Shown: positions 270-33,044 of the stretch, piece by piece
Layout: the number at the start of each line of letters is the position of its first letter
How positions within the stretch are numbered: position 1 is the first letter of the stretch
Origin: a virus
Lineage: Duplodnaviria; Caudoviricetes
IMG/VR virus record: IMGVR_UViG_3300028591_000183
Span: 10,239-74,238 of that record
DNA: 64,000 nt
Direction: 5' to 3' (one strand)
Position numbers and translations under genes: made by a program
Notes under the pieces: model-generated
Databases searched by the model: none
Told to the model about the DNA's origin: nothing
What the model saw: only the letters and a program-made list of their open reading frames with translations

Positions 270-3200
270 ATGACTAAAGCAGAACTTATGAATTTGGTAG
301 GAAAAAAGGTAACAGTTACTTTTAAAGACGGGGATAAGATATGTGGCATCCTTGGATATGCAGACGAGTTTTCAGCTAAACATAATTATATAAAGCTAAA
401 TGATTTTTACATTGGTAATATGACATTCAGAGTGAGCCATATTAAGAAAGCAGAGAGTGAGATAGCATGAGCGAAGAAAATGGAAAAGTTTGCTGTAATT
501 GTAGACACAATATAAGAGAGGGTGAGGATGCAGATATTCATTGTCGCTGTGAAATATGGAATGAGTATCTATCTTATCTCACGGTTATGACATATTCGTG
601 TAGAAGATGGAGTAAGGAGAGAAAAGATGGCTGAATATCATGTAGGTTGTGGGATGGCGAGAATATATGCAGGGACTTTAAACAAACAAGGCAACTTGTG
701 GACACGGAAATCAGACGTAACGGATGAAGCGATAAGTGCAGTTGCTCAGTATCTTTTAGAGTATGATGAAGCACTTGAATTTACTTATAGAGGAAAGCGT
801 TATAGATTGGCTGTTTCAAAAAAGGAGTAAATATGGGAACAATACGAAATGAAATGACAATAGTGCATCATTGGAAAAAGGATGAATTGGAGAAAGTAAG
901 AGAAGATGCCATAAAAGTGTTTAGCCAAATTGCTAGGCAAGATGCAGGAGTTGAGGAATATATTGAAAGTATGATAAGTCCTATAATGAGTACCTATATA
1001 AATCAAGAATATACTTTCGTTATAAATGGAGATTGTTCAAAAATTGGGTGGGAAACGTCTGAGCGATTCCATGAAACAAGAATGAAGTGGTGTGAAAAGC
1101 ATAAGCATGATGTACAAAATATCATAGTGATAAATTTTGGTGAAGGTGACGAGCCTTGTCGCATAGTTTTTGATGATAAAGCAGAAAATGAGGAATAAAC
1201 ATGGAAGAAATAGAGCTAGTAGTTAAAATACCCAAATATATGTTTGAAGATATTCAAGACAGGTATGAGCATCCTAATAAAGGGGACGGAATAAATCTAC
1301 TTGAATATGCAGTAGTAAATGGCACACCACTTCCTAAAGGGCATGGAAAGCTTATAACTGAGCCGACAGAGGAAGATATTACAAAAACAGTAGGCGGTCA
1401 AAATGATTTTGCTGAATGTATCAAAGATGCAGTTAAAGCAGTATTTGACAACGCAGACGCAATCATAGAAGCAGATAAGGAATAGAAAGATGAATAGAAA
1501 ATTTTGTGATAGATGTGGTAAAGAGATAAACATAAATCCTATTGTACAAGTCCAAAATCCATTATTTGAAATAAGACAGATTTATCCACGAGGGTTAATG
1601 CCTATTGATTTATGTGAGGATTGTTCCAAGAAGTTTGTTGAATGGGTAAAGGAGCAGGAAGATGCAGGTAATAATTGATATACCAAGTCACATATACAAA
1701 ACTCTCATAGAAACAGGAACGTATGGATATTATAAGTTTGATTCCAAGAATGCAATCAAGAATGGCATACCCCTTCCTAAAGGACACGGAGCAATAAAAG
1801 ATGTTTCGCAGATTGAAATACCCATGTGTGAGGATAGGGCGTATGAAAGATGGGTACAGGTAGCCATAGATTCTGCACCGACAATTATAGAAGCAAGCAA
1901 GGGGCAGGAAAATGATTGATTATCTTTTAGTGGCATGGATTTTGGTCGGTATATTTTGTCTTGGCTTTTATCATGGATACAGATTTAGAAAATGGATGGA
2001 TAAGGAGAAAACAAAATGATTTATGGAAACATGAAAGAACACAAATACGAGGTAGAGGGTATTAAACCACAGATTATGACAGAGATAACAACTTTGTTAC
2101 ATACATGTTGTGAGAAAGGATTATTTAACAAAGATGATGTATATAAGATAGCAGAGATGGCTTGTATGTCAAATGAGGATGTGCATGATGAAGCCATGAA
2201 TAAGTTAGATTCACTTATGTCTACTGTTTTGGATAAGATGGTTGATGATGCTAAACATGGTAAGCAGGAAGCCATTGATGCTTTGGCTATGCTTGCAGAT
2301 ATGGTTTTAAAGGATATGAGGGATAAGGAGCAGGAATGAATGATGAAGAAGTAATGATTATTTCATTGTTTATCAACCTTTTAATCTATTTATTTTATAT
2401 AGCTTTATTTTTCGCATAGGAGATAAAAGATGGAAATGACGATTGAGGAAATTAGGTATAGATTGCAAGCCATGACTACAATGTGTACTTTTCAAGATGC
2501 AGTAGGGCATGATTTATCACAAAAAGAAATCAAATTGTATAATCAAGCAAAGGACGAAGCAATAAAAATCATGCGCAAGTATCAGAAGATAGAGCAGATA
2601 GTAAACGGGAATATCAATGGTGCTTATTCTAATGTTGCTGAAATACGGAGGATAATAAATGGGAATGACAATTAATGACAAAGATTTGGCATCGGGTTTA
2701 ACTGCACTAGCTATCATGTGTGCAAGCGAAGGAACAGACGGATGTGATATTACTATAACTACAACAAAGGGCAAGATTAACTGTCACATAGAATTTTCGG
2801 GGGTAGAAGATGGAAAAATCACTTGATTTTGTTGAACAATGGGCAGAAGAAAATAATTATGTAATCGTATCTAGCGATATGTGGGCTATTGCACAAGATA
2901 TCATGAGCAAGTATCAGAAGATACAGGAAATAATTGATAATTGGACTAAACCCGAAGAAATCGAATGGGCGATACGAGAGGTATTAGAAGATGACAAGAT
3001 TTGATGCTATTAAGCAAATGAATGTTGAAGATTTAGCTTTCTTTCTGAGTATTGTTGAATTAGGTGATTTAAACTCTATTCCCAATATAACTAACAAAGA
3101 CATTGATTATTATATGAATTATTTTAAAGAAGAAGATGGTAGTGATTTGATAAATACTTTACATGAATTGAATAGAAGTCGGCATGACTATAAGGAGATA

Positions 3201-3456
3201 GAAAATGGAAAGACCGATTGAAAAACTAAGACAGTTGCAAGAAGATGTTGACAAAGAGCATAAGGACTTAATTATTGAGTGTGATATGTTGCAAGGCAAT
3301 ATCAATCGCATGATGACTACTCATGACCACGAGGAACTACTTACAATGTTCGCCTACGCTCATAAAAGATTAGGTGATATTTTTTGGAAGAATAAGAAAA
3401 GAATAAATATGGAGAATATAGAAGATGAAAATGACACAACAAATGTCAATAGGTGA
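270..3456 (+). CDS. Cluster of about 12 small co-oriented hypothetical phage proteins (270-470, 627-830, 833-1198, 1201-1485, 1490-1678, 1662-1919, 2016-2339, 2430-2675, 2810-3004, 2991-3221, 3205-3456)
   Basis: Tightly packed or overlapping ORFs with AGGAG/GGAG-type RBS; no recognisable catalytic motifs. Confidence 0.75.
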
Positions 3457-4937
3457 TTTTATTAGACACATGAATGATGCTCAGTTGGCTAATGTATTGT
3501 TGGATACCATCACGGCAAATGCAGATTATTGTGAGGAATATCGCATAGATTTGGGTGGCTATATCAGCTTTAATGTCGTTGATGAAGTACCGATTAAATG
3601 GGATTTGAAATATTATAAGAAAGGATATATTTGGATATGGCAGGTGGCAATTTTGATAGTGCAAAGAATGGCAAGAATGATGAGTTTTATACACAGCTCA
3701 CAGATGTATCAAAGGAGCTGATGCACTACAAGGAGCATTTCAAGGATAAAATTGTTCTGTGTAACTGTGATGACCCTACATGGTCTGCGTTTTGGAAGTA
3801 TTTCCATCTGAATTTCTCGGCTTTGGGATTAAAGAAACTGATTTCCACACATTATGACCGCAATAATCCCACCTATAAAATGGTTTATGAGGGTGGTGAT
3901 GATAATAATATCGAAGTGGGTGTAATTACACCACTTGAAGGTAATGGTGATTTCAGAAATCAGGAATGTATTGACCTCTTAAAAGAGAGCGACATTGTAG
4001 TAACAAATCCACCATTCTCTCTGTTTAGAGAATATATCGCACAGTTAATGGAATACGAAAAGAAATTTATCGTATGGAGCAATACAAATGCTATAACATA
4101 TAAAGAATTTTTCCCTTTACTGAAAGATGGTAAAGTGTGGGCTGGATATTTGTTTAACAGCACTTGCGTTTTTAGGGTTGGTGATGGATATAAATATGAT
4201 GAAAAAGTTACTCAGCAGATAAATGATGGATATAAATACGGAAAAGTTCCGAGTATTGCAACATTTACTAATTTAGATATAAAGAAACGCCATGAGAATT
4301 TAATTCTTTGGAAGAATTATACACCTGAAGAATATTCTGATTACGATAATTATGACGCTATCAATGTTAATAAAGTGACAGATATTCCTGTTGATTATGA
4401 TGGAATATTGGGTGTGCCTATTACTTTCCTTGATAAGTATAATCCTGAACAGTTTGAAATTGTTGGATTGGTGAATGGCAAAGATAATTTAGCGGGTATT
4501 AAAACCACTCGTGATTATTCTGCATTTTCTGAAACTCGACAAGATTCAACAAAAACAGGAGCAAGTGGTAAAAAAATCAATGGTAATCCTGTTATAAAAG
4601 GCAAACCAACCAAAGGTAATTATTTTACTTTTGGTTCTGAAGTCGTATATTCAGCGTATGCTCGAATCTTTATCCGTCTAAAGCATGGAAGAAAGGCGTA
4701 GAAGAAGGATTTAATCATGGTTGGGATAGAGGATATAAAAATTCATCTGAATTAACACAGAAAATCTGTGAAAAAGCAACTGATAGAATCCTTAATGCTG
4801 AATCAACTTCTTATGACGCAGGATTTAAGAAAGCGTTAATGATGGCTCAATGGTACAACAAAATCTTTCTTGGAATTGATACCGAGTATGATGTAGAAAA
4901 GATTATGAGGTTATATAAGAAGTACAAAGGAGAATGA
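3425..4937 (+). pseudogene. Phage gene interrupted by the methyltransferase cassette (N-part 3425-3624, C-part 4697-4937)
   Basis: AAGAAAGG direct repeat at 3617-3624 and 4689-4696; deleting the insert gives an in-frame ORF ...KYYKKG|VEEGFNHGWDRGY...KYKGE* whose stop overlaps the next ATG (ATGA at 4934-4937). Confidence 0.7.
3637..4701 (+). CDS. Adenine-specific DNA methyltransferase, EcoRI_methylase-like family
   Basis: KNDEFYT, VLCNCDDP and catalytic DIVVTNPPFSLFREY motifs; RBS AAGAAAGGA. Confidence 0.9.
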   Translation: MAGGNFDSAKNGKNDEFYTQLTDVSKELMHYKEHFKDKIVLCNCDDPTWSAFWKYFHLNFSALGLKKLISTHYDRNNPTYKMVYEGGDDNNIEVGVITPLEGNGDFRNQECIDLLKESDIVVTNPPFSLFREYIAQLMEYEKKFIVWSNTNAITYKEFFPLLKDGKVWAGYLFNSTCVFRVGDGYKYDEKVTQQINDGYKYGKVPSIATFTNLDIKKRHENLILWKNYTPEEYSDYDNYDAINVNKVTDIPVDYDGILGVPITFLDKYNPEQFEIVGLVNGKDNLAGIKTTRDYSAFSETRQDSTKTGASGKKINGNPVIKGKPTKGNYFTFGSEVVYSAYARIFIRLKHGRKA

Positions 4938-5487
4938 AGATGGCAATAAGTGAGAGAGAACACCACATCAAAGTATTAGAACAATTTCTACATGATTATC
5001 AAGAATGGGGAGAAGATTTTGAACTAGAGAAAACCATTAAGTATGCCATATCCTCACTTAAAACAGACCTTAAATACGACTTGATGTATGAGGGTGAAGA
5101 TGTTTATACCAAGGATGAAGTAATAGCTATGCTAGAAGATTTAAAGGCAGATATTGAGGTAAAGACGAACTACTACGAACAAGCGTATAAAGAGCCATCA
5201 AATTTAATACATGAAACCGCTATATGTGGAAGAATGTTTGGTTGTGGAGAATGTAAAGAGCTTATTCAACAGAAAATCGACAAGTTAGAGGGGAATAAAC
5301 AACTATGACCGACTTGCTATATGTGAGTTATGACAATGACGAAAAAAGAAATGAAATAGGAATATGTATAGGCAGAATCAATGAAACAGGCAAGCATGAA
5401 ATTCTAAAGATGGAATTGGATGAACAGGCAGAAGTCTTGTATAAGGTACTGACAGACCAATCAATTAAAATCGACAAGCTGAGATGA
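4934..5487 (+). CDS. Two hypothetical proteins (4934-5308, 5305-5487)
   Basis: ORF track, overlapping start/stop codons. Confidence 0.7.
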
Positions 5488-5543
5488 AAAGGATGTAAGT
5501 TGATAAAATAGGTAAACCATGATAGTGTGGAAGTGAGGTAATT

Positions 5544-5873
5544 ATGAAAAATATTTCAATGTCAGATTTAGGGCTTAACGAGCTAGATAGTAAGGATAGA
5601 GCTTTGTATTTTATGTGGGAAAGTTCCCACGCTAGAGCGGAAAGAACTGTTGTGAGATTGTGGATTGTTGTATTGGTTCTTATTGTAGCTTTATTAGGAA
5701 CTAATGCGGGATGGATATACTACGAATCACAATTCGAGGATGTAGTAACAAATACGGAAACAGTTACACAAGAAGCTACGGCAGATAGAGATGGCGAGAT
5801 TCGATTGATTGGCGGTGACTACTATGGCGACAAGAGCGAAACAGACAGTAACCAAAACAACAACCAAGACTAG
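5544..5873 (+). CDS. Single-pass membrane protein
   Basis: Hydrophobic LWIVVLVLIVALLGTNAGWIYY segment; RBS GAGGT. Confidence 0.7.
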   Translation: MKNISMSDLGLNELDSKDRALYFMWESSHARAERTVVRLWIVVLVLIVALLGTNAGWIYYESQFEDVVTNTETVTQEATADRDGEIRLIGGDYYGDKSETDSNQNNNQD

Positions 5874-5964
5874 GCAAAAGAAAACACCCGAGGGTAATTT
5901 GACCTGCCCTATATGTGGTGGCAAGGGAAGTGTCCCTAGAGGATATAATAAGAAGAAATCTTAA
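5824..5964 (+). CDS. Small basic protein with CxxCxGxG motif (46 aa, not in ORF track)
   Basis: Translated by hand: MATRAKQTVTKTTTKTRQKKTPEGNLTCPICGGKGSVPRGYNKKKS; followed directly by a terminator. Confidence 0.55.
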   Translation: MATRAKQTVTKTTTKTRQKKTPEGNLTCPICGGKGSVPRGYNKKKS

Positions 5965-5991
5965 AGACTAGCTAATCGGCTAGTCTTTTTT
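5964..5991 (+). terminator. Intrinsic terminator
   Basis: AAGACTAGC-taatcg-GCTAGTCTT then T-run. Confidence 0.8.
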
Positions 5992-6015
5992 AGTAAACCA
6001 TTGTAAAATTGAATA

Positions 6016-6057
6016 AGAGCCAAAGAGCCGATTTCTTAACAGGAATTGGCTCTTTTT
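6016..6057 (+). promoter_or_regulatory. GAGCC-GAGCC hairpin element (copy 1 of 4)
   Basis: AGAGCC-aaa-GAGCCGATTTC...GAATTGGCTC-TTTTT upstream of the RBS of 6077. Confidence 0.6.
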
Positions 6058-6076
6058 GTATGTTTGAGGGGAATTT

Positions 6077-6349
6077 ATGCGGGTTAAAGACTACATCTAT
6101 AGCAATTCAGAAATGGAAACTATCATCAATGAATACATCCACTCACAGAGGGATAGACTTGTCTGTAAGCTGTGTTTCATTGATGGAATCACTCATGAGA
6201 AGATAGCGGAGCATCCCGATGTAGATTTAACTCCTAGACAAGTGAGCAATATTATAAGTAAGTCATCTATTATTATTTCAGATAGATTAGAAGCGAGAAA
6301 TGCAGGGGAGGACAAGATATGCCTAATTCCACAAATGAAGTTATCGTGA
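6077..6349 (+). CDS. Sigma-70 region 4-like HTH protein
   Basis: RDRLVCKLCFIDGITHEKIAE...LTPRQVSNII pattern typical of sigma4-like HTH. Confidence 0.6.
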   Translation: MRVKDYIYSNSEMETIINEYIHSQRDRLVCKLCFIDGITHEKIAEHPDVDLTPRQVSNIISKSSIIISDRLEARNAGEDKICLIPQMKLS

Positions 6350-9300
6350 ATGGTCGGGTAGTTATGAGTGTCCGTGGTGATACTGTAACAGAAAATACTC
6401 TTGTACAGGGCGAAACAGCACATGACAAAACGGGTAAAGAAATAGTAGGTAATCTTAATCCTCAATCTTCTGAGGAACTAAATGAGCTAAGAGAACGGGT
6501 TGATGCTCTCGATGAAGAAGCCTATAGAGTATTGGACAGAGTGGAAGAAATAGAAGAAGAAGACTATATCCCATTTAATGATTCGGATGATGAAGAACAT
6601 CCTAAAAAGAAGACATTATTTGCTTCTATTATAGAAAAATTAAAGTCTATTTTTGTTCAGAAATCAGAGTTGAAGAAACATACTTTTGAAGTAGGTACAG
6701 ATATCCCTGCTGATTCAGACTTAAACACCTATGTAACAGAGGGTGTTTATAAAATTGCGCCCGATACAACTGCACAAACTATTTCTAATGTCCCTGTAGC
6801 TAGTGGTGACGCAAAAGCAGGTGGAAAACTCATAGTAAACAAGGGGCTTTCATTGAATGAAACCTATGTCTTACAAATCTATATCAACAACGCAGGACAT
6901 ATTTTTAAGCGCAAAACTACCAATAATGGAACTACGTGGGATGGTTGGACTCAATTAGCAACTATGGGTGCTATTACACCTTCTCAAATAGGTGATGGCT
7001 ATGCTACGGCTACTGTAAGTGGTTCTGTTATTACAGCTACAATAAGCGGATTCCAATTAAGAGCAGGGGTCATTGTTGCTCTTTATTTTCCAAGCAATGT
7101 TACTACTGCATGTACACTAAATATTAGTAATACAGGTGCTAAAGCTATAAAGAATTGGACTTCGCATGACCCGTCTGTTGGTCATTCGATAAGAGAAGGT
7201 GTAAATACTTTCATATATGATGGCACTCTATATAGGGCTATTGCATTTGAAAAGAGTCCTCGTATTGTATTGCAAGACTATGTGGCAGACACTAGCGGTA
7301 ACTTGATTACTGAATGGGGTTATGACGCTAATAAAGCTCAGATAAAATATAGCTTGCTCTATGATAAGTTGAGATGGAATCACTATAAAAATTCAGCTTG
7401 GAAGGGTGATGTTGTACTTGCAGATTATAATGATATTAAACATCAAACAGTAGGCATCGATATCCCTGCTAATTCAGACCTAAATAACTACACCACTAAT
7501 GGAATTTATTGTGTTGCTCAGAATACTACTGCTGTAACTTTAGTTAATTGTCCAAGCTCTTATGCAGGAAAGTTAGTAGTTGAGAGAATAGCAGGAAATA
7601 GTTATATTGTTCAGACCTATTATACTTATCATCAAGATTTAGCGGGATTTGGCGGTGTATTTAGAAGGTCTTATGCGAGTTCATGGCAACCGTGGGTATA
7701 TATAGCTAATATCCAAAATGACGGAGGAAATAGATACCTTTATTTAATGGGCGAAACAACAACAGCAAACGATAAAGGTGTTGGAATCAAAGCAAGGATA
7801 AAAGATACTACCACTAATGGGGACTATACAAGGCAAATTTTAAGAGCATTTCAAGACCACCAAGCCACGCCTACGGGATTTAATCTTGTAATAGATGGTG
7901 GCGGTGCGTTAATTCTCGGTGGTGGCGAAGCAGGACAGGCGCATTACGGGGCTTTAACAAAACCTTATGCTAGTGAACAGGTATATATCACATCTGATGG
8001 AAATATATACTTACAAGCCAATGCTACTCCAATAGCTAATAGGATAGGATATGTAATAGATGCAAATGGCAATTTAATACCATGTAAGGCTGACGCAAAA
8101 GTTGACAATCAAGGCAATATAGGTTGGTCTGATAAAAAACTTGCAGGAGTATGGACATATAAGATAAATGGAGAAGATGTTGTAAATGCATCTACAATGA
8201 AAGATACTTCATTGGATAAAACTCTGCGTCTTGGTGGATTGGCTACAAGACGTATCGAGATACCCGATAATAGTGGATGGGCTAAGTATATTAAGTTTTG
8301 TGATGTAACTACATGGTACACTTCAACCACTACAGGACAATCAGTATTATCGTTTGTAGGATGGTTACTAACTGCAAGAGAAGGAGGTTATGCATCAAGA
8401 AGTGAAGTAACAGAACTTGAACTTGCTGTAGGCTATGAAAAAAGCACAACACCGAATAGTGGTTCACTTATATTATCAACAAGTAATGGTACTTACATGC
8501 CTGTAGTCTTAAAAGAAGTTTTAAATAATGTTACAAAATATTATTTAGCATTAAGAGTGGATGGTTCGGGTAGGCAAGGATTTCTTTTAGGTCATTTTAA
8601 AATGAATGATTATTCGGGTGATTTATTTGATGGTAATTGGGTAAATTGTACCGATGCGAATGGAACATTACCTACAGGATATTCAGTAGAGATAAATGGA
8701 AGACTTAAACGAAATGATGCTATTTTTGCAACATGTACCACGGCGGGTGACCAACAAAACAAGGTAGCGACAATAGATGACCCTTTTTGGCAACTAAGAA
8801 ATGGGCGTATTGTAGGCGTAAAGTTTACTAATACTAATACCTTTAATTCAACAGCCACAAACAAGATTACTCTTAATGTAAATAATACAGGCGCAAAACC
8901 AATCTATTATAACACAGGATATCCAACAGGCACTAACACCGCAGTATTCGGTTATGCAAATAGACTTCATTTCTATATGTATGATGGCACTAATTGGGTT
9001 TGGATAAGTGCAGGTTACGCTCCCGATAGTAATAACCGTAAATCATTTTATGGAACATGTTCAACAGCAGGTGACCAACGAGTAAAAGTTGTTACTTTAG
9101 CTGATACAAACGGGTGGGAACTTCGTGCAGGAACTATTGTAGGTGTTAAATTTACCAATTCAAATACGTATAGTGCTACCTCAGATAATAAGATACAGCT
9201 TAATGTTAATAATTCGGGCGCAAAGAATATTTACTACAACACAGGTTATCCAACGGGAACGAGTCAATATGTTTGTGGTTATGCAAATAGAACACAGTAT

Positions 9301-10000: not shown

Positions 10001-10384
10001 ATGAGGTTTTACTTATTTAAGGTTGCTTATAATAAAGTAGCCTGTGCAGAGGACAGACCACAACCATCTGCTTACGACAGTTATGATGAAACTAAGAAAG
10101 CGCAGTATCAGTACATGGGACAGAATGTGCTTGGTGCAACAATCGGATGGGTAATGACTAAGATTGTCTGTGAGAATGGAGTCTGCAATGCTACGGATGA
10201 TACTTATTGGGAAGACCCTAATATCATCCCATATTACAGAGATTTGATTCTTGCAGGAACAATCAACGCTAAGACTAACAAGCCTTGGGCTGTAGAGGAT
10301 GTATCTGAGAGATGGCGTTCTGCCGTAGCTGAGTATGTCGTACAACATACTCCTGTAGAAGAACAGGAGGTAACAAATGAGTAA
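10001..10384 (+). CDS. Hypothetical protein with C-terminal CD1375-like segment
   Basis: YRDLILAG...VEDVSERWRSAV resembles the small tail-associated CD1375 family; RBS AAGGAGG. Confidence 0.5.
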   Translation: MRFYLFKVAYNKVACAEDRPQPSAYDSYDETKKAQYQYMGQNVLGATIGWVMTKIVCENGVCNATDDTYWEDPNIIPYYRDLILAGTINAKTNKPWAVEDVSERWRSAVAEYVVQHTPVEEQEVTNE

Positions 10385-12319: not shown

Positions 12320-12871
12320 ATGAAAAGGTTTATCGGACTATTGATGTGTCTGCTTCTGATAGCAGGATGTTTGTCCGTATCTCAAACAGACGAGGGAGAT
12401 GAAAAGGTAGCAGTTGTTGATACTAAGAAAATTGAATATTTGACAGATGAACAACTTTCACTTCTTTATTCCTGTAAGCAGGATATCAGAAAAAAGGATG
12501 ATTCTATCGTTGAATTATCGCAATCCGATGCATGGCTGTTGATGCAGGTTGGCAGATGTGAGGGTGGAGCTTCTTTAATCGGACAGATGTGGGCTATGAG
12601 AACCATCTTAAACCGATTAGATGCAGGATGGTCTGATTCTCTGTTAGGCGTTCTTACAATGGATAACCAATTTGAGGTTATTTCAAGCGGAAAGTACAAG
12701 AGTGCAGATATCAATGTTGAAACTCATTTGGCTTTGGCTTGTATCGAGAGCGGTTGGGATGACACCGAAGGAGCTTTGTATTGGGAATCCAATACTAATT
12801 CAGATGAATCATGGCACAAGAAGAATCTAACGTTCATCAAAGAAGTTGCAGGAAACATTTATTACAGGTAA
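12320..12871 (+). CDS. SleB-like cell wall hydrolase (Hydrolase_2) with lipoprotein-type signal
   Basis: LLMQVGRCEGG...ILNR...QFE...ALYW; N-terminal LLIAGC lipobox. Confidence 0.7.
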   Translation: MKRFIGLLMCLLLIAGCLSVSQTDEGDEKVAVVDTKKIEYLTDEQLSLLYSCKQDIRKKDDSIVELSQSDAWLLMQVGRCEGGASLIGQMWAMRTILNRLDAGWSDSLLGVLTMDNQFEVISSGKYKSADINVETHLALACIESGWDDTEGALYWESNTNSDESWHKKNLTFIKEVAGNIYYR

Positions 12872-12954
12872 CTAGAAATATTTGTCTGTATCATTGGTGG
12901 GTTGTTACCCATCAATGTATTAATCCTTTCAGAAAGAAAACAAAATTATAAAGT

Positions 12955-13090
12955 TTCCGTGCCTAGCCATACCCAACTAAGTCAATTAACATGATGGCTC
13001 TAATAGCACATACTATAAAGAACAGGACAATATAGGACAATACAGGAAAAGACAGGACAAGACAATATATAAAAAATTAACAACTCACCT
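12955..13090 (-). repeat. Degenerate pentamer-periodic tract in inverted orientation relative to the main array
   Basis: Minus strand reads AGGTGAGTTGTT (identical to 14251-14262), then TGT-NN pentamers (13020-13070) and ...TTAGT TGGGT ATGGC TAGGC AC. Confidence 0.55.
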
Positions 13091-13218
13091 GTGATGCAGA
13101 CAAATAAAAAGCGATTAAGTTCGCACCTTAACCGCTTTTAGGAGTTGGAATTACTATCAGTATGATTTCTAACTCCGATTCTAACACATTATTTCAAATT
13201 AGAAAAGGAGAAAAAATT

Positions 13219-13890
13219 ATGGCAACAAAGAAAACAGAAAGTAACGTATTTGAGATTAAACCCTTGGATATTCAGAAGTTATCAATTCGTATTAAGGGTG
13301 ACTCGCCATTGATTGTTCACGCTTGGAGCGAAAAAGCAAAAAAACAAATTCTTGATAAACAGATGAAGATTACAAAAACTTCTGCGAAAGAAGCACGAAA
13401 TCCATATCGAGAGTTTATTGATTCAATGTATTGGCTTACGCCAAAGCCCGAAGCTACACCCGATGCGTTTGCAGAAGCCGTAAAGAATGGCGCAAAGTGG
13501 GGTTTTCCTGTGACGGGAATTAAGCAAAGTGCTAATTCAACAGCATACAGACTTGGTTGGACTCCTAATCAAACCATGCTTAGATGCGCTTATTTTATAG
13601 AGAGTGAGTATGGAGAATTGTTTGAAATCAAGGGTTCAATTCCCGAAATACGTGAAGATAACGTCACAATCGGCATGGGAACTGCGGATTTGCGTTATCG
13701 TGCAGAATATAAAGATTGGTATGCAGATATTGTTGTAAGTTATAACAGGTCGGGTGCATTAACACTTGAACAGATACTTAACATAATCAACGCAGGTGGC
13801 TATTCGTGCGGACTTGGCGAATGGAGAGCCGAAAAAGACGGTATTTTTGGGCGTTATCATATTGAGTCTAGCAACACTATTAGCGATTAA
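13219..13890 (+). CDS. Cas7/RAMP-like phage protein (Vipr-like putative RNA-guided effector)
   Basis: IRIKGDSPLIVHAW N-terminal strand, LRYRAEY, C-terminal glycine loop AGGYSCGLGEWRAEKDGIFGRY; abuts the pentamer array; RBS AAGGAG. Confidence 0.7.
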   Translation: MATKKTESNVFEIKPLDIQKLSIRIKGDSPLIVHAWSEKAKKQILDKQMKITKTSAKEARNPYREFIDSMYWLTPKPEATPDAFAEAVKNGAKWGFPVTGIKQSANSTAYRLGWTPNQTMLRCAYFIESEYGELFEIKGSIPEIREDNVTIGMGTADLRYRAEYKDWYADIVVSYNRSGALTLEQILNIINAGGYSCGLGEWRAEKDGIFGRYHIESSNTISD

Positions 13891-13897
13891 GCGATTT

Positions 13898-14330
13898 GGC
13901 AGTTTTGGTATGGTTCTCTATGGTGGGTTTTGTTATGGTTACGTTGGTTTTGGCAGTTATGGTGCGTTATGTTGCGTTAAGGAAAGGTGCGCTATGGCGG
14001 GATTTGGTAAGGCAGTTAAGGCGAGGTGCGGTTAGGTATGGTAGTTTCGGGTTTGTTAAGTTGAGGTATGGTGAGTTATGGCAGTTACGGCACGTTAAGT
14101 TCAGTTGAGGTAAGTTCAGTTTCGGTGAGGTTTGTTATGGTATGGCAGTTTTGGTGGGTCATGTTATGGCAGGGTCTTGTACGGTCTTGTTAGGTTTGTT
14201 GGGATAAGGCAGTTAAGGTTAGGTGAGTCGAGGTTTGTTTAGTCGAGGTTAGGTGAGTTGTTGCAGTTATGGTGTGTTTAGGTAGATTTGGGTAAGTTAT
14301 GATTAGGTCAGTTTAGGCAAGGCGTGGTTC
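13898..14330 (+). ncRNA. Array of 7 pentamer-coded units (putative guide RNA array)
   Basis: Units start at (G/T)GCAGTT: 13898, 13952, 14011, 14080, 14144, 14208, 14262; spacings 54/59/69/64/64/54 are all 5n+4; bodies are 10-13 NN-G(G/T)Y pentamers. Confidence 0.85.
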
Positions 14331-14357
14331 TTATTAAATTTAAAAAGGAGTTTGGAT

Positions 14358-14852
14358 ATGGTTTATTCATGGAAAACATTTCAATATTCTGTTTCTGCTG
14401 ATGTTGCAGGAAAAGAATTTGAAAAGATTGAAAAAAAATACGGGAAAGTTACATCGGAACTGCTTTTGCAAAACGCAGAACCTATAGAATCCCCACTACA
14501 TGAGCTTTTCGAGTGGGATGATGCTGTAGCAGGTCGTAAATACCGACTTTCACAGGCTACAAATATTATCATCAATCTTGCTGTAGAGGTTGAAAAGGAA
14601 CAGAAACCTAAGAAAATCCGTGCGTATTATAACGTGAGTGATACCGAGAAAAAGGGACGTTTTATTAACGCTGAAACAGCATTTTCAAATCCCGATACAA
14701 AAGAAATTATTCTGAAAAGAGCTTATCGTGAAATGCAATCTTTTGTGCAGAAATACGAGAACCTTACAGAATTTGCGCCTGTATTTAAGGCGATAGAATC
14801 AATCAAAAAAGACATATTAGGAGATGAAGCAGATGAACAACTTGAAGATTGA
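14358..14852 (+). CDS. Conserved phage protein downstream of the array (putative accessory gene)
   Basis: MVYSWK...PLHELFEWDDAVAGRKYRLSQA; RBS AAGGAG 7 nt before ATG 14358. Confidence 0.75.
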   Translation: MVYSWKTFQYSVSADVAGKEFEKIEKKYGKVTSELLLQNAEPIESPLHELFEWDDAVAGRKYRLSQATNIIINLAVEVEKEQKPKKIRAYYNVSDTEKKGRFINAETAFSNPDTKEIILKRAYREMQSFVQKYENLTEFAPVFKAIESIKKDILGDEADEQLED

Positions 14853-24618: not shown

Positions 24619-25413
24619 ATGCGAATAAAACTTCATAGTCCTTATCATCATTTTCCACATCATGAACCTGTTGAGGGAAAAGATTATATTGATTGCTATA
24701 ACGACAGCTTTGTAATGAGTGAGAAACCCGAAAATTGGGAGAAAAGCATAGCACTTCTCATAGAACCTAGACCACTTCAACCTAAAGTCTATGAGTTTGT
24801 TGAGCATAATTACGGCAGGTTTAAATATGTTTTTACCCATGACTCTATTCTTCTGAATAAACTGCCTAATGCAAAGATGATTATTTGGGGTGGTGTATAT
24901 GATTGGAGTGACGAGCCAAAGGATTTCACACGCCCGATTTCTATGGTGGCTAGTTGGAAGGAACAAGCCCCTGTAAGGATTCAGAGAAAACAACTTGCAT
25001 TTGAGCTTAAAGGGAAGATAGATACTTACGGAACATTTGATGGTGGCGAAATGGCTACTACTAAACAGATATATGGGAAGTATCCTTTTTCTGTTGTTAT
25101 AGAAAATCACATTGATGATTGGTGGGTAACAGAAAAGATATGTAACTGTTTTGCCTGTAGGACAGTACCGATTTATTATGGTGCTAGAAAAATCGGAAAA
25201 CTCTTTAATTCAGATGGAATAATAATCTGTAATAGTATTGATGAAGTAAGAAATGCTGTAGATTATGTTTTACTTCATGCAAGGCAGGAATACTACTTAA
25301 GAAAAAAGGCAATAGAATGTAACTTTATTGCTGTTGAAGATTATTCTTCATTTGAGAATTGGTTTTATGTACATTATGGGGAATTACTTGACAAAATGGG
25401 GGAGAGTAAATGA
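24619..25413 (+). CDS. Glycosyltransferase family 10-like (fucosyltransferase-type)
   Basis: YPFSVVIEN...WVTEKICNCF...VPIYYG. Confidence 0.8.
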   Translation: MRIKLHSPYHHFPHHEPVEGKDYIDCYNDSFVMSEKPENWEKSIALLIEPRPLQPKVYEFVEHNYGRFKYVFTHDSILLNKLPNAKMIIWGGVYDWSDEPKDFTRPISMVASWKEQAPVRIQRKQLAFELKGKIDTYGTFDGGEMATTKQIYGKYPFSVVIENHIDDWWVTEKICNCFACRTVPIYYGARKIGKLFNSDGIIICNSIDEVRNAVDYVLLHARQEYYLRKKAIECNFIAVEDYSSFENWFYVHYGELLDKMGESK

Positions 25414-27329
25414 AGCTGAGTATTATTATTCCGTATTACAATTTAAAGCCATATACAGATGAATTATTGGATTGTCTTGAACCTCAAATCACGGATGATG
25501 TTGAGGTTCTTGTCGTAGATGATGGGTCAAAGATTCCTTATAAGACAAAGTATAAATGGGTTGAAATAATCCGCAAAGAGAATGGCGGTGTATCTTCCGC
25601 TAGAAACTTGGGAATTGAGAAAGCCCGTGGAGAATATATTTCTTTTATTGATGCCGATGATTTGGTGGCGGTTGATTATGTGAAACAGATACTTGACAAG
25701 ATAGACACCGAACATTTTGATTATCTTGAAATGTCATGGAAGTCACTTGCAGGTGGCGCACAATGGAGTCAAAAACTGAACAGTATCAAGGATAGTCTAC
25801 CCAATCCTAGTGTTTGTACAAGAGTATTCAAGAAATCTTTTATAGGTGATGTTAGATTTAATGAAAAAAAGTTTTCCACGGAAGATGATGAATTTAAGAG
25901 GAAACTTTATTACTACATTGGTGAGAATACTAAAAAGGCTGTAATAACAGACTATCTATATTTCTACAGGACAGCCGTTGAAGATTCAAAATCGAAAAGA
26001 TTCTTAAAGGGAGAACTCCCAACTAAGAGGATTATTTATTACTTCAATCATATTACGGCTGATATGAAGTACCTTATTGACGAGGTTGCTAAAGAAGATG
26101 AATTAAATGAGGTATGGGTATTAACCAATCAGAATGATATCCCCGAACTTGAATACTATGCTCATGTAAAGAAGCCTTTTAGGGTTGCAGGAATGGAACT
26201 GCGTGGAGAGCCTTATAATAACTTTACTCTTATACCGCAAGCCCTGTTTACGCAGGTAGCCATTTGGACGAACAAGACTCTTGAAATTGGCGGTATAGAG
26301 TCATTCATTTATAATTTTTGTGTGAGCCTAAAGAACGACTACGATATTACTGTTCTATACGGCGATATGTCTGATAAGCAGAGGTACAGGCTTGAAGAAC
26401 ATGTTGAGGTTGTTAAGAATAACCCGAAACGTACTGTAATCTGTGACACTCTTATAGTTAATAGGCTAAAAGATACTATTCCGAGTAATATAAAGGCAAA
26501 AAGAGTAATTCAGATGTGCCATACTTGTGTTAGAGATGATATGCATATCCCGCAGGACAGAGATGAAATTGTATGCGTATCGGATGCGTCTAAGGAGAGT
26601 TTTGCGGAAGAAGCAAAGGATAGCATTGTACTTCATAATCTTTTTGTTAAACCCAAAATAACAAAGCCACTTCTTTTAGTATCTGCCACAAGACTTGATA
26701 CAAAAGACAAAGGGCAAAAGAGGATGCTTAAACTTGCAAGGGAAATGAACAACAGGGGGATACCCTTTGTATGGCTTTACTTCTCCAATGTGAAACTTGA
26801 TAATACACCGCCCAATATGGTATGTATGCCACCTACCCTTGACGTAGTTAATTACATTTCTATGGCTGATTATTTAGTACAATTATCTTCAAGTGAATCC
26901 TTCTGTTATTCAATAATAGAGAGTCTTACCTGTGGCGTTCCTGTACTGTGTACAGACCTTCCTGTTTTATCTGAATTAAACATCAAGGATGGAGAAAATG
27001 CTTATGTCTTCCCGTTGGAAATGGATGAACCTTATGACATTGACAGGATATTCAAAAATCAATTAAAAGGCACTTTTAAGTACGATTATGATAACAAGAA
27101 GATAATAAAGCAATGGAAGAAAATACTTGGAAATACGAAGCCTACAGGACGATATAACCCATCTGCAACTCCGAGGGTTATGGTTAAGGTTAATGTGAAA
27201 TATAATGACCTTGTTTTGAACAGGATTCTATATCCGAATGATATTCTAATGATGAAAACAGAAAGGGCATATTATCTTCAAAACACTAAGAAGTTTGTTA
27301 CTGTTGTCGATGATGGTAAACTAATGTAA
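25410..27329 (+). CDS. Two-domain glycosyltransferase (GT2 + GT4-like)
   Basis: SIIIPYYN, VVDDGS, NGGVSSARNLG, FIDADD; then GGIESF and SSSESFCYSIIESLTCGVPVL. Confidence 0.85.
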   Translation: MKLSIIIPYYNLKPYTDELLDCLEPQITDDVEVLVVDDGSKIPYKTKYKWVEIIRKENGGVSSARNLGIEKARGEYISFIDADDLVAVDYVKQILDKIDTEHFDYLEMSWKSLAGGAQWSQKLNSIKDSLPNPSVCTRVFKKSFIGDVRFNEKKFSTEDDEFKRKLYYYIGENTKKAVITDYLYFYRTAVEDSKSKRFLKGELPTKRIIYYFNHITADMKYLIDEVAKEDELNEVWVLTNQNDIPELEYYAHVKKPFRVAGMELRGEPYNNFTLIPQALFTQVAIWTNKTLEIGGIESFIYNFCVSLKNDYDITVLYGDMSDKQRYRLEEHVEVVKNNPKRTVICDTLIVNRLKDTIPSNIKAKRVIQMCHTCVRDDMHIPQDRDEIVCVSDASKESFAEEAKDSIVLHNLFVKPKITKPLLLVSATRLDTKDKGQKRMLKLAREMNNRGIPFVWLYFSNVKLDNTPPNMVCMPPTLDVVNYISMADYLVQLSSSESFCYSIIESLTCGVPVLCTDLPVLSELNIKDGENAYVFPLEMDEPYDIDRIFKNQLKGTFKYDYDNKKIIKQWKKILGNTKPTGRYNPSATPRVMVKVNVKYNDLVLNRILYPNDILMMKTERAYYLQNTKKFVTVVDDGKLM

Positions 27330-27765: not shown

Positions 27766-29031
27766 ATGGCTGTTTTAATCGCACACGCTAGTTCAGATGA
27801 AAATAAAAGTGCAAAAGGCGGTCAAGCGGGCGACCAAACAGGGAGAGAGGTCTGCATACGTGAATGGTACAATAAGCCGTGGAACGTGATGATAAGATTT
27901 AAAGACCCTGTAATGGCAAATAAAGTTGCCGATTGCATGGAGATGGCTTGTGACAATAATTTTCTTGGTTACGACCAAAATCAACGCAATTCCCTGTTGG
28001 TTAAAGCAAGAAAGTACAACTACAATGTTTCAAAAGTTACTGAACCATGCGAAACAGATTGTAGCGCACTTGTTTCCGTAGCCTGTATGTATGCAGGAAT
28101 CCCCGAGAGTACACTTACACTTCATGGTAATTGCGCCACAACAAGAACCTTAAGACAGATACTTAAATCCACGGGCGAAGTGGAGATTTATACTACACCC
28201 TCGTATACTTCTAAATCAGATAAATTAAAGAGGGGCGACATTCTTCTAAAAGAGGGCGCACACGTTGTCGTGGTTGTTAAAACAGAAGGAAACCCATACA
28301 GGTTATCTTCATCACTCCTTAAGGAAGGAAGTATGGGTGAATCTGTAAAGTGGTTACAGTATGAGCTTAACGCTAACGGAGCTAAATTAAACGTTGACGG
28401 GGCGTTTGGAAAGCAGACAAAACTTGCCGTACTTCTTTATCAAAAAGACCACGGACTTGTATGTGATGGGGTTGTTGGTGTTAAGACATTAGAAGCTCTG
28501 AAAAACAAGAAACCTGTGAAAAAATCTTCCGACAATGAGAAGGTTATTTGGGATTATTTAATCAAGAAAATACCAAACCCTTATGCCGTTGCAGGACTCA
28601 TGGGTAATTTAAGAGCGGAGAGTGGACTTAATCCTAAGAATCTTCAAAACACTACTGAAAAGAAATTAGGAATGAATGACGAACAGTACACATCTGCTGT
28701 AGACAATCAGACCTATAAACATTTTACTTCCGATAATTGCGGATATGGTATTGCTCAATGGACTTCATCGGGAAGAAAAAAAGCCCTGTATGAGTTCCGT
28801 GGTAATCGCTCTATAGGAAGTTTGGAAATGCAATTAGACTTCCTGTGGCATGAGCTTAATACATCCTATAAGAAAGTGCTTAACGGAATTTTATCTTCAA
28901 ATTCCGTAAGAGAAGCATCGGATATTGTTCTAACTAAATTTGAAAGACCAAAAATTCAATCCGAAGCTGTAAAAATAAAACGTGCCAATTTAAGCATGGA
29001 ATACTTTAACAAATATGGAGGGAAACTTTAA
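27766..29031 (+). CDS. Endolysin: NlpC/P60-like peptidase + PG-binding domain + phage tail-lysozyme domain
   Basis: DCSALV...H; LKEGSMGESVKWLQ..DG.FG; AGLMGNLRAESGLNP...GYGIAQWT. Confidence 0.85.
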   Translation: MAVLIAHASSDENKSAKGGQAGDQTGREVCIREWYNKPWNVMIRFKDPVMANKVADCMEMACDNNFLGYDQNQRNSLLVKARKYNYNVSKVTEPCETDCSALVSVACMYAGIPESTLTLHGNCATTRTLRQILKSTGEVEIYTTPSYTSKSDKLKRGDILLKEGAHVVVVVKTEGNPYRLSSSLLKEGSMGESVKWLQYELNANGAKLNVDGAFGKQTKLAVLLYQKDHGLVCDGVVGVKTLEALKNKKPVKKSSDNEKVIWDYLIKKIPNPYAVAGLMGNLRAESGLNPKNLQNTTEKKLGMNDEQYTSAVDNQTYKHFTSDNCGYGIAQWTSSGRKKALYEFRGNRSIGSLEMQLDFLWHELNTSYKKVLNGILSSNSVREASDIVLTKFERPKIQSEAVKIKRANLSMEYFNKYGGKL

Positions 29032-31703: not shown

Positions 31704-33044
31704 TTACCTCCCATAGTATTTAAGAAAATCGTTACCAAAACTTGAAAGCTGTTCGTTTGTGAAGTCGTGCTGATTGTTAAGCTGTAAATCCATGACTACG
31801 TTGCAAATCTCGCTGTCTGTAAGTAGACCGCCCTGCAATCTCTGTGGCTTTTTGTTGTTCATGCCATCAAGGTAGAGCATATCGCCGTGTCCCTGTAACA
31901 TCTCTGCACCGATTTGGTCTAACACTACCATAGAGTCTGTTCTTGACATAACAGACAGACAAACCCTAGCAGGAATGTTGGCTTTTATCTGACCCGAAAT
32001 AACCTTAACAGTAGGACGCTGTGTTGCAAGTACCATGTGGATACCACTAGCTCTTGCTTTCTGTGCAAGTCTTACGATATTAGATTCAACAGATTTCTTG
32101 TAAGCTGACTCCATCATATCTGCCATCTCGTCAATCACAAGGACAATCTTAGGAAGTCTGTTGTCGGGATTTCTTCTGTTGTAATCATCAATTTCACGGC
32201 TACCTGCATTTGCCATAACTGCATAGCGTCTGTCCATCTCTTTACACAGCTTAGATAAGAGCGAGATAGCTTTCTGTGTATCAGTAATGTATTTGCAGTA
32301 GTGAAGATGTGAATAACGTCTGAACTCAACCATCTTAGGGTCAATGAGGAAAAGCTGTAAATCATCGGGAGTGTTACGCATAAGCAGGGAAGTAATAACA
32401 CCATTGAGGAATACAGATTTACCACTTCCTGTTGTACCTGCAACAAGGAGGTGTGGCATCTTGGCAAGGTCACCATAGATGTTCTCACCTTTTGCATTCT
32501 GACCGATAGGAATGATTGTCTTTGAACGTTCCATCTTGTATCTGTTATCATGCATGAAGTCACCGAAAAGAACGGTAGAAGACTTCTGAGGGACTTCAAC
32601 AACAATCTTTGCACCGTCATTGAATATCCTTGTTTCTTCGTTGTCTGTAGCGTATTTAATCTGTCTTGACAGCTTGTATGCCTTATTGATATTGTTCATG
32701 GGTCTGAACTTCATTGTGATAACGGATGCACCGTTAACACATTCAACGGGAAGGAGAGTAACATTCTCATTAAGTTCGATTGAGCGACGTATCTTTTCTG
32801 CATAAACCTGCGCCATGTTTGAGCTACCCTTTGAGGTATGATATTTGAATGTATTACCATATACAGGGTTGTATAACTTAGGAAGTCTGAATGGATAATC
32901 ATATTCGTAGTTGTCAAACAAAGGGCTGTTATCTGTTGCTCCACTTACGCCTGTAAGAGTCCTTCCAAGTGCCATCAATCCTATTGAAAACTTCATCATT
33001 TTATTTGTATTTATCATTGTACGTATCCTTTCATCTTTAACCAT
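31704..33044 (-). CDS. FtsK/SpoIIIE-family DNA translocase, no obvious gamma domain
   Basis: PHLLVAGTTGSGKS, LIDPK, VIDEMAD, LAQKARASGIH, ATQRP, GAEMLQGHGDML. Confidence 0.9.
   Translation of the reverse strand: MVKDERIRTMINTNKMMKFSIGLMALGRTLTGVSGATDNSPLFDNYEYDYPFRLPKLYNPVYGNTFKYHTSKGSSNMAQVYAEKIRRSIELNENVTLLPVECVNGASVITMKFRPMNNINKAYKLSRQIKYATDNEETRIFNDGAKIVVEVPQKSSTVLFGDFMHDNRYKMERSKTIIPIGQNAKGENIYGDLAKMPHLLVAGTTGSGKSVFLNGVITSLLMRNTPDDLQLFLIDPKMVEFRRYSHLHYCKYITDTQKAISLLSKLCKEMDRRYAVMANAGSREIDDYNRRNPDNRLPKIVLVIDEMADMMESAYKKSVESNIVRLAQKARASGIHMVLATQRPTVKVISGQIKANIPARVCLSVMSRTDSMVVLDQIGAEMLQGHGDMLYLDGMNNKKPQRLQGGLLTDSEICNVVMDLQLNNQHDFTNEQLSSFGNDFLKYYGR

Follow-up and report, generated by a model that had tools for sequence, protein, structure and literature searches.

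A probable phage-encoded VIPR locus with a staggered array of tail-less guides

The 64-kb window analysed here (64,000 nucleotides (nt) of viral DNA, positions 10,239 to 74,238 of IMG/VR record IMGVR_UViG_3300028591_000183) carries a compact locus consisting of a gene for a Cas7-like RAMP protein, a G/T-rich array of short repeated units and a small accessory gene. The source is a linear virus record of 74,238 bases that is estimated to be 81% complete, and the phage's own genes include those for a terminase, portal, capsid, replisome organiser and primase/helicase. Reading rightward, the gene order is vipr (13219–13890), the array (13898–14333), the accessory gene (14358–14852), a DUF1351 gene and ERF recombination genes, which places the vipr module at the head of the recombination/replication module. 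A preliminary description, made from the sequence alone, had likened this arrangement to the VIPR (Viral Interference Programmable Repeat) systems, a group of CRISPR-related RNA-guided DNA silencers described in 2026 (bioRxiv 10.64898/2026.04.26.720920,.720927 and 10.64898/2026.10.15.759431). Our analysis upholds that reading through the homology of the protein to the Vipr of Escherichia phage SUSP1, the pentamer structure of the array, predicted targets that are read with a 1-nt skip in codon register, and 5n + 4 unit spacings that correspond to a staggered array. By homology, as judged from sequence comparison, the locus belongs to the VIPR systems.

The vipr gene product

The vipr reading frame (13219–13890, plus strand) encodes 223 residues and is preceded by a ribosome-binding site (AAAGGAG). 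A longer start at 13162 was rejected, as homologues of 216–225 residues fit the start at 13219. The product has no Pfam family and falls in the unannotated phrog_4652. Searching all PDB sequences with phmmer returned a single match, the entry named 'SUSP1 Vipr protein' (36pp_D, E = 6.2e-5), and a profile of 81 diverse family members recovered the same protein with an E value of 4.4e-14 over residues 58–217. Similarly, hhalign paired the protein with SUSP1 gp039 (NC_028808, 28474–29061, minus strand) at a probability of 98.5% and an E value of 1.9e-15. The family itself is large, with 4725 matches in a word-indexed search that reduce to 2541 representative clusters at 50% identity.

With respect to structure, an AlphaFold2 (AF2) model of the protein (pLDDT 91.8) contains a predicted thumb in the form of a β-hairpin at approximately residues 143–164, which includes the invariant R161, and a predicted glycine-rich loop (G-loop) at residues 194–211 that holds the stretch C197-G-L-G-E201-W202-R203. 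The glycines at 194, 198, 200 and 211 are invariant, in agreement with the RAMP-type C-terminal glycine loop proposed at the outset. A structural comparison against Cas7 and Csm3 had been suggested as a check on the fold, and the outcome is that a RAMP fold is predicted. Specifically, the top Foldseek matches are all Csm3/Cas7 proteins (E = 1e-6, with a probability of 1.0 to Csm3), and all 50 entries listed by VIA belong to the Cas7 family. The best of these has a Z score of 11.4, with a root-mean-square deviation of 3.4 Å over 155 residues, and the structural matches, which include Csm3, type VII Cas7 and gRAMP domains, span Z scores of 9.3–11.4 over 129–166 residues.

The residues expected to contact the guide are also largely retained. 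In the cryo-EM structure of SUSP1 Vipr, the GGY triplet of the guide is contacted by H17, R138, D177, W178 and R179 (bioRxiv 10.64898/2026.04.26.720927), and these align to H34, R161, E201, W202 and R203 of the window protein. Among the 81 family members, R161 and R203 are present in every sequence, position 201 is E or D in every sequence, H34 is found in 74 and W202 in 61. The pairing of H34 with SUSP1 H17 lies in an N-terminal part of the alignment that is not significant by itself. Taken together, sequence homology and the predicted model identify the 223-residue protein as a Vipr, homologous to the characterised protein and built on a minimal predicted RAMP fold with a single RRM core, a thumb and a glycine-rich loop.

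The guide array, its relatives and the accessory gene

The array opens with GGCAGTT at 13898, 7 nt past the vipr stop codon (13890), and extends over 436 nt. Seven copies of GCAGTT mark its units (13899, 13953, 14012, 14081, 14145, 14209 and 14263), preceded by G in six copies and by T in the last, and the spacings between them (54, 59, 69, 64, 64 and 54 nt) are every one of the form 5n + 4. Each unit follows a common grammar in which a constant CAGTT is succeeded by 10–13 pentamers of the form NN-G[G/T]Y, NN denoting the variable dinucleotide, and by a closing NNGG, so that GG|CAGTT forms the junction motif. When phased from AGTT, the array comprises 81 pentamers, whose NN positions carry 0.18 and 0.19 bits and whose triplet positions carry 0.71–1.43 bits. 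Of the 81, 73 have G at position 3; position 4 is mostly G (48) or T (28), and position 5 mostly T (64) or C (15). GGT (32) is the most frequent triplet, ahead of GTT (22) and GGC (11).

The five-base periodicity is pronounced. Self-identity at a lag of five is 0.462, as compared to 0.312 ± 0.021 for shuffled sequence (z = 7), and this value is the maximum among 436-nt stretches of the window. A phase-aware pentamer detector likewise finds the array to be the sole region of its type in the window. G and T make up 74% of the bases over 13891–14340, and the array is not spanned by any open reading frame (ORF), the longest overlapping ones being 79, 70 and 41 residues. The preliminary account of a non-coding, G/T-rich array starting 7 nt after the stop codon, with seven units opened by (G/T)GCAGTT, spaced by 5n + 4 and composed of 10–13 pentamers that combine a near-constant triplet with a variable dinucleotide, is thus reproduced. 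Tandem Repeats Finder picks up the array in fragments only, because the NN positions vary. An Rfam search of 12900–14500 (E ≤ 1) gave nothing relevant, and therefore no ribozyme was recognised between the guides. Folding of the array RNA showed no excess over shuffled sequence (z = 0.38).

These features correspond closely to published descriptions of VIPR guides, which consist of 9–16 YNNGG repeats in which GGY is held by the protein and NN pairs with DNA (the three papers cited above); related consensus forms besides GGY are permitted in the first of these (10.64898/2026.04.26.720920). The legend to fig. S18 of that paper describes 'staggered' arrays, in which adjacent guides share a 1-nt overlap. 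With overlap as worded in that legend, the 5n + 4 spacing arises because guides of 5(n + 1) nt share one base, the C of GG-C-AGTT. From its pentamer phasing and periodicity, the region 13898–14333 on the plus strand is assigned as a staggered vrRNA array of seven tail-less guides.

Ten related loci and two cultured actinophages have arrays of this type before or after vipr. A junction of the form GG|CAG[G/T][T/C] and unit lengths of 49–74 nt, all 5n + 4, recur in six IMG/VR phages, a contig from a Clostridia metagenome-assembled genome (MAG) and further Logan/ENA contigs. The array accompanies vipr despite a changed gene order in locus L006 and in Mycobacterium phage Donkeykong, and in one relative it lies downstream of the accessory gene. 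Two ORFs that GenBank lists as 'hypothetical protein', gp40 of Gordonia phage UmaThurman (L008 3571–3931) and gp48 of Donkeykong (L009 2511–2851), correspond to GGY/NN pentamer arrays beside vipr homologues and are probably guide arrays, not genes.

Orthologues of three individual guides occur in these relatives: L005 has those of guides 1 and 6, and the Clostridia MAG locus L007 has that of guide 3. Guide 1 (13900–13953, plus strand, 10 NN) is common to L005, L294 and L296, and its NN bases are 19/20 identical to those of the L005 copy. Guide 6 (14210–14263, plus strand, 10 NN), whose NN string also occurs in L005 and L294, agrees with L005 at 20/20 NN bases, and 10 of its 29 triplet bases differ in a drift that stays within G[G/T]Y. 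Across the orthologous guides 1, 3 and 6, NN differences amount to 2/60, versus 24/87 for the triplet (Fisher p = 1e-4). The earlier expectation that NN would vary across homologous loci therefore stands for comparisons between guides, where NN is hypervariable, and does not stand for orthologous guides, where NN is steadier than the triplet. Dinucleotides that are hypervariable between guides yet conserved beyond the triplet in orthologues are what a specificity code would predict.

Two further observations were made on the arrays of relatives. In locus L001, a lone guide-like unit (CAGGT followed by approximately 13 NN-GGY pentamers) is located at 448–520, 2.5 kb upstream of vipr and away from the main array. 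In L005 (3760–3800), L294 (approximately 3190–3225) and L296 (approximately 1830–1870), a short stretch that is not built of pentamers and contains an inverted repeat (for example GTGGGATGC...GCATCCCAC) interrupts the array near its start. The window's array lacks it, and it may act as a promoter or terminator within the array or as a processing element.

The third component of the locus is the vipr-associated accessory gene (14358–14852, plus strand), which encodes 164 residues, is assigned to phrog_15946 and is recognised by its conserved linkage to vipr. A ribosome-binding site sits between it and the array. Its product carries an invariant H..FEWDD..A...YR..QA motif in which H48, E52, D54 and D55 are invariant. 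The gene adjoins vipr and the array in L002–L005, L294, L296 and L299–L301, and hhalign links its product to UmaThurman gp41 (99.6%) and Donkeykong gp50 (98.8%). These homologues stand beside vipr in both actinophages, and the three-part module has therefore been kept from Clostridia phages to actinophages. The accessory protein is unrelated to SUSP1 vap1 (hhalign 1%), has no Pfam family and no PDB sequence match, and finds no convincing structural match in Foldseek (best E = 1.5) or across VIA (best Z = 4.8). Residues 9–77 show only faint echoes of winged-helix DNA-binding domains (Z = 3.3–4.6), and an ESM Atlas search returned only unnamed viral clusters. Separately, in L005, the Vipr of which is 86% identical to that of the window, an additional ORF of approximately 70 residues that starts with MTVLEF lies at 4390–4600 between the array and the accessory gene, which are adjacent in the window.

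Predicted targets of the guides

Targets were sought by joining the NN of each guide with one wildcard between them, according to the published 1-nt-skip rule, and scanning IMG/VR. Full-length exact scans gave no IMG/VR match for guide 3 (13 NN) or guide 6 (10 NN), and shorter seeds were informative for three guides. Guide 3 (14013–14081, plus strand, 13 NN) was represented by the 10 NN that it has in common with L007. This seed yielded 33 exact matches, all of them in frame, and all on the sense strand of KEAYIxRFNEME, a motif of Rha/antirepressor genes that closes the Rha domain (PF09669) on its C-terminal side, and 23–25 of 26 NN bases agree there. The next two NN lie beyond the seed and were left free in the search, and they agree in 33/33 matches. 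In these Rha targets, the CA of the opening CAGTT pentamer is unmatched, and this pentamer therefore behaves as a handle, not as guide sequence.

Guide 5 (14146–14209, plus strand, 12 NN), searched with its first 9 NN, gave at least 117 matches. Those listed are all antisense to PKYSVSLIIPK in genes for Enc34-type single-stranded DNA-binding proteins (SSB, PF10991), with 22/24 NN bases matched, and the next two NN beyond the seed agree in 103–116 of the 117 listed. Guide 2 (13954–14012, plus strand, 11 NN) gave at least 115 matches on the sense strand of SPIAMAKNAIG in HK97-type portal genes (PF04860), with 19/22 NN bases matched; the 115 that were analysed represent 101 distinct target sequences. 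Among the matches listed, each set for guides 2, 3 and 5 is confined to one frame of one protein family, and the register is such that NN fall on codon positions 1 and 2 and the skipped base on the wobble position. The skipped positions vary freely (1.1–1.35 bits of entropy), and because of this freedom a single guide matches between 25 and 101 distinct sequences. In sequence, guides 2, 3 and 5 spell the best-conserved peptide motifs of the HK97-type portal, Rha/antirepressor and Enc34-type SSB families, which are carried by other phages and are the predicted targets.

Several controls bear on the 1-nt-skip reading. When 57 other guides of the relatives were scanned against 2.5 Mb of fetched phage-locus DNA at ≥85% NN, they produced 429 matches (390 without the shared guide 1), whereas the same scan gave 15 with the guides reversed and 13 with a skip of 2 nt. 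The relatives' guides strike other conserved motifs, in portal genes, in an adjoining ORF of 543 residues and in an ORF of 662 residues near the SSB gene. Across the phage's own genome and the Rha loci, skips of 0, 2 and 3 gave only noise or the array itself. In a sample of 401 Clostridia genomes, guide 5 matches three and its reversed control none. The phage's own genome contains no member of the HK97-type portal (PF04860), Rha or Enc34-type SSB families, and tblastn detects no homologue of the targets in it; the phage's portal belongs to a family different from that matched by guide 2. The best matches within this genome under a 1-nt skip are 16/20 for guide 1, which is equalled at other skip lengths, and 20/26 for guide 7; apart from this guide 7 self-match, none is above chance.

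Guide 1 presents a less pronounced signal. Ten of its 13 IMG/VR seed matches fall antisense to the peptide QYINPMDIN in one gene, for a VirB4/TraG-like ATPase of 804 residues, and a different guide, from relative L299, matches the same ORF 270 nt from the guide 1 site. The probable target of guide 1, from these matches, is the VirB4/TraG-like ATPase gene of another mobile element. The remaining three matches, in a gene for a Fringe-like glycosyltransferase, were taken as chance. The contigs that carry the ATPase ORF (L278, at 4057–6468, and the similar L279–L289) are filed as 'viral' in IMG/VR and resemble conjugative elements more than phages; guides of two relatives match them, as does guide 1.

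Guide 7 (14264–14328, plus strand, 12 NN), which is preceded by a degenerate junction (TG|CAGTT), has the start of a rival accessory gene as its predicted target. Its first 10 NN gave two matches in JGI metagenomes, in L294 and L295. The match in L294 is the start of an accessory-gene homologue, and that in L295, which contains in-frame stop codons, was taken as chance. In related phages, the accessory gene begins with 12 codons (MVYSWKMYQY..V) that guide 7 spells, with 22/24 NN bases matched in both L294 and L296, 21/24 in L299 and 20/24 in L005. For the phage's own gene the corresponding value is 18/24, or 20/26 including the trailing pentamer. This own copy has diverged at four codons, through a synonymous exchange of TCA for AGT at a serine, the changes M7T and Y8F, and a difference at codon 11. 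Published work accepts a site as a target at ≥80% NN (10.64898/2026.04.26.720920), and anti-VIPR guides are described in both Doudna-lab VIPR papers. Considering the divergence of the own copy together with this cut-off and these precedents, guide 7 is therefore read as a weapon against rival VIPR relatives from which the phage's own copy has diverged, a reading drawn from the aligned sequences.

That the best guide 7 match in the phage's 74-kb genome falls exactly on the start codon of the adjacent accessory gene could alternatively point to an autoregulatory guide, for which partial pairing at this site would tune expression of the operon. We consider this unlikely. The own copy is the worst guide 7 match among five close relatives, and the two-base synonymous switch between TCA and AGT is expected of escape, not of maintained pairing. 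Moreover, no self-target passes the published cut-off, and guides directed against other VIPR systems have a precedent in both of the papers just mentioned. A weapon against rival relatives thus remains our preferred reading of guide 7.

Interpretation and comparison with known systems

We regard it as very probable that a VIPR system is encoded here by the phage, with its guides in a staggered array, and that it would repress rival phages and mobile elements sharing a Clostridia-type host. On the model of SUSP1, vipr, the array and the accessory gene would be transcribed rightward as one operon, and the array transcript would be cut at or near the GG|CAGTT junctions to give seven guides of 55–70 nt. 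One Vipr protomer would then occupy each pentamer, with H34, R161, E201, W202 and R203 sequestering the G-[G/T]-Y triplet, and the exposed NN would pair with double-stranded DNA, every third base being skipped. The outcome would be repression of the transcription of competing phages and mobile elements in the shared host, and each guide would tolerate synonymous variation, so that many rivals could be covered.

A number of points weigh against this interpretation. Transcription, processing, formation of the ribonucleoprotein and repression are all carried over from SUSP1, and the hhalign alignment to SUSP1 Vipr is at approximately 30% identity over the C-terminal 67 residues only. Within that alignment E201 stands in place of D177. 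The triplet is often GTT and not GGY, and the guides have no 3′ tail or pseudoknot, unlike those tested experimentally. As to targets, each of guides 2, 3 and 5 ends in one or two NN that mismatch the targets found, and the 13 seed matches of guide 1 are about the number expected by chance. Guide 4 (14082–14145, plus strand, 12 NN) has no target found, its seed giving two IMG/VR matches in unrelated ORFs at chance level, and none was found for guide 6. The chance expectation of about 2–3 matches per seed is itself a rough estimate, the size of the IMG/VR collection not being stated. Finally, the assignment of a Clostridia-type host derives from one relative, the Clostridia MAG.

With respect to the effect on targets, the preliminary description had considered silencing more likely than cleavage, having seen no cas1/cas2, nuclease or canonical repeats. 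Consistent with this, no CRISPR-type direct repeats occur in the array or locus, and no cas10, cas5, cas6, cas1/2 or other cas families were detected among the neighbouring genes and the largest ORFs scanned, nor was a nuclease domain. Silencing also appears to us the more likely mode, yet the accessory protein is without a recognisable fold. It is conceivable, and in our judgement improbable, that a VIPR-family system damages its targets through this protein by cleavage, nicking or abortive toxicity, beyond repressing transcription, given that the accessory genes of some VIPR types are reported to encode nucleases or helicases (10.64898/2026.04.26.720920) and that a protein with invariant H48, E52, D54 and D55 is unrelated to the DNA-binding vap1 of SUSP1. 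Nonetheless, Pfam, PHROGs, PDB sequence and fold searches place no nuclease, helicase or other enzyme family in the accessory protein, its weak structural echoes are those of DNA-binding domains, and VIPR types with nucleases, as published, belong mostly to defence islands on chromosomes and not to phage operons (10.64898/2026.04.26.720920). A simple-sequence repeat, a replication-origin iteron field near the ERF/replication genes or a low-complexity coding region is a highly improbable account of the G/T-rich region, despite its position at the head of the recombination/replication module, the short ORFs of 41–79 residues that overlap it and the annotation of equivalent regions as genes in GenBank, since no reading frame survives unit lengths of 5n + 4, the array stays with vipr in different phyla, also where gene order differs, and the variable dinucleotides encode foreign conserved motifs far above controls, which simple repeats and iterons do not.

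The repressing VIPR system that we favour can be compared most directly with the type II VIPR of Escherichia phage SUSP1 (Vipr, vap1 and vrRNAs; PDB 36pp). The two share a homologous Vipr with thumb and G-loop residues that hold GGY, a phage-borne, minimal two-gene locus with guides on the same strand, and NN/GGY pentamer guides of 9–16 repeats. The predicted targets are also alike in having one skipped base on the wobble position, in lying on either strand and in belonging to competing mobile elements, including rival VIPR systems. They differ in that detectable identity between the two Vipr proteins is limited to the C-terminal third, and in that the window's guides are packed head to tail at 5n + 4 with no tail or pseudoknot, whereas SUSP1 units are approximately 100 nt long with tails between them. 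The frequent GTT triplet of the window contrasts with the GGY of SUSP1, and the window's accessory gene, unrelated to vap1, is separated from vipr by the array. In addition, the predicted targets in the window are broadly conserved hallmark genes of many phages, whereas those of SUSP1 belong to one satellite family. The locus has neither the structured 3′ tail (pseudoknot) nor the vap1 of the type II (SUSP1/P. fulva) clade, and on these sequence features it should not be filed as type II VIPR. It fits the published 'staggered' arrays as these are described in the legend to fig. S18 (10.64898/2026.04.26.720920), in which guides meet without a spacer or tail and overlap by 1 nt.

A more distant comparison is to the Csm3/Cas7 backbone of type III-A, type VII and type III-E CRISPR-Cas systems, with which Vipr has in common an RRM core, a thumb hairpin and a glycine-rich loop. 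Polymerisation on a guide with a fixed step, which is established for Cas7 proteins, would be a further common trait. The step is 6 nt in Cas7, in contrast to 5 nt in VIPR, and there is no detectable sequence similarity between Vipr and Csm3/Cas7. The genes around the window's locus that were examined likewise include no CRISPR repeats, cas10, cas5, cas6 or cas1/2, and its predicted target is DNA, read in a 2 + 1 pattern. What is shared with type III CRISPR-Cas (Csm3/Cmr4) is the fold only, with no cas operon and repeat-spacer array.

To our knowledge, experiments on VIPR so far have been confined to type II systems of Enterobacteria and Pseudomonas. In that setting, the present analysis indicates, on purely computational grounds and with internal controls, that the 1-nt-skip code holds in a distant, tail-less clade of phages of Gram-positive bacteria. 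The use of codon positions 1 and 2 of an invariant motif would give each guide considerable breadth, with 25 to 101 distinct sequences matched by one guide, and guide 7 would be a second case of VIPR-against-VIPR conflict, in which the carrier's own target copy is the worst match among close relatives. Through its link to cultured phages that infect Mycobacterium smegmatis and Gordonia terrae, the clade offers a setting in which the processing of staggered arrays and the accessory protein are approachable. A more far-reaching proposal, which we put forward tentatively and which may well prove wrong, is that the clade represents an uncharacterised VIPR type or mode, defined by the FEWDD accessory protein, tail-less staggered guides and a constant, non-pairing CAGKY opener, and extending from Clostridia phages to those of Gordonia and Mycobacterium. 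Its guides would act as family-level weapons on invariant peptide motifs of hallmark genes (portal, SSB and Rha), hitting hundreds of otherwise unrelated phages, and rival VIPR phages would fight one another through guides against the accessory-gene start, the carrier protecting itself by recoding, including the TCN/AGY serine switch.

The surroundings of the locus are viral and the locus itself is minimal, its neighbours being a cell-wall hydrolase gene, the accessory gene, DUF1351 and ERF. The hydrolase gene (12320–12871) lies upstream of vipr, and between the two is a hairpin of 13 pairs (13107–13139). A terminator-like scan called this hairpin on the minus strand; read on the plus strand, it has no more than a short run of T after it. 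Its probable role is to mark where the late/lysis genes give way to the vipr operon. The gap between the hydrolase gene and the hairpin also contains a tandem repeat of ACAGGACAAT (13022–13064; 4.3 copies with 84% matches), which could serve the early operon as an operator or a site of protein binding. Farther along the window, a glycosyltransferase-like protein of 639 residues is encoded at 25410–27329 (plus strand), a second endolysin-like protein, distant from the hydrolase gene, at 27766–29031 (plus strand), and an FtsK/SpoIIIE-like ATPase on the opposite strand at 31704–33044.

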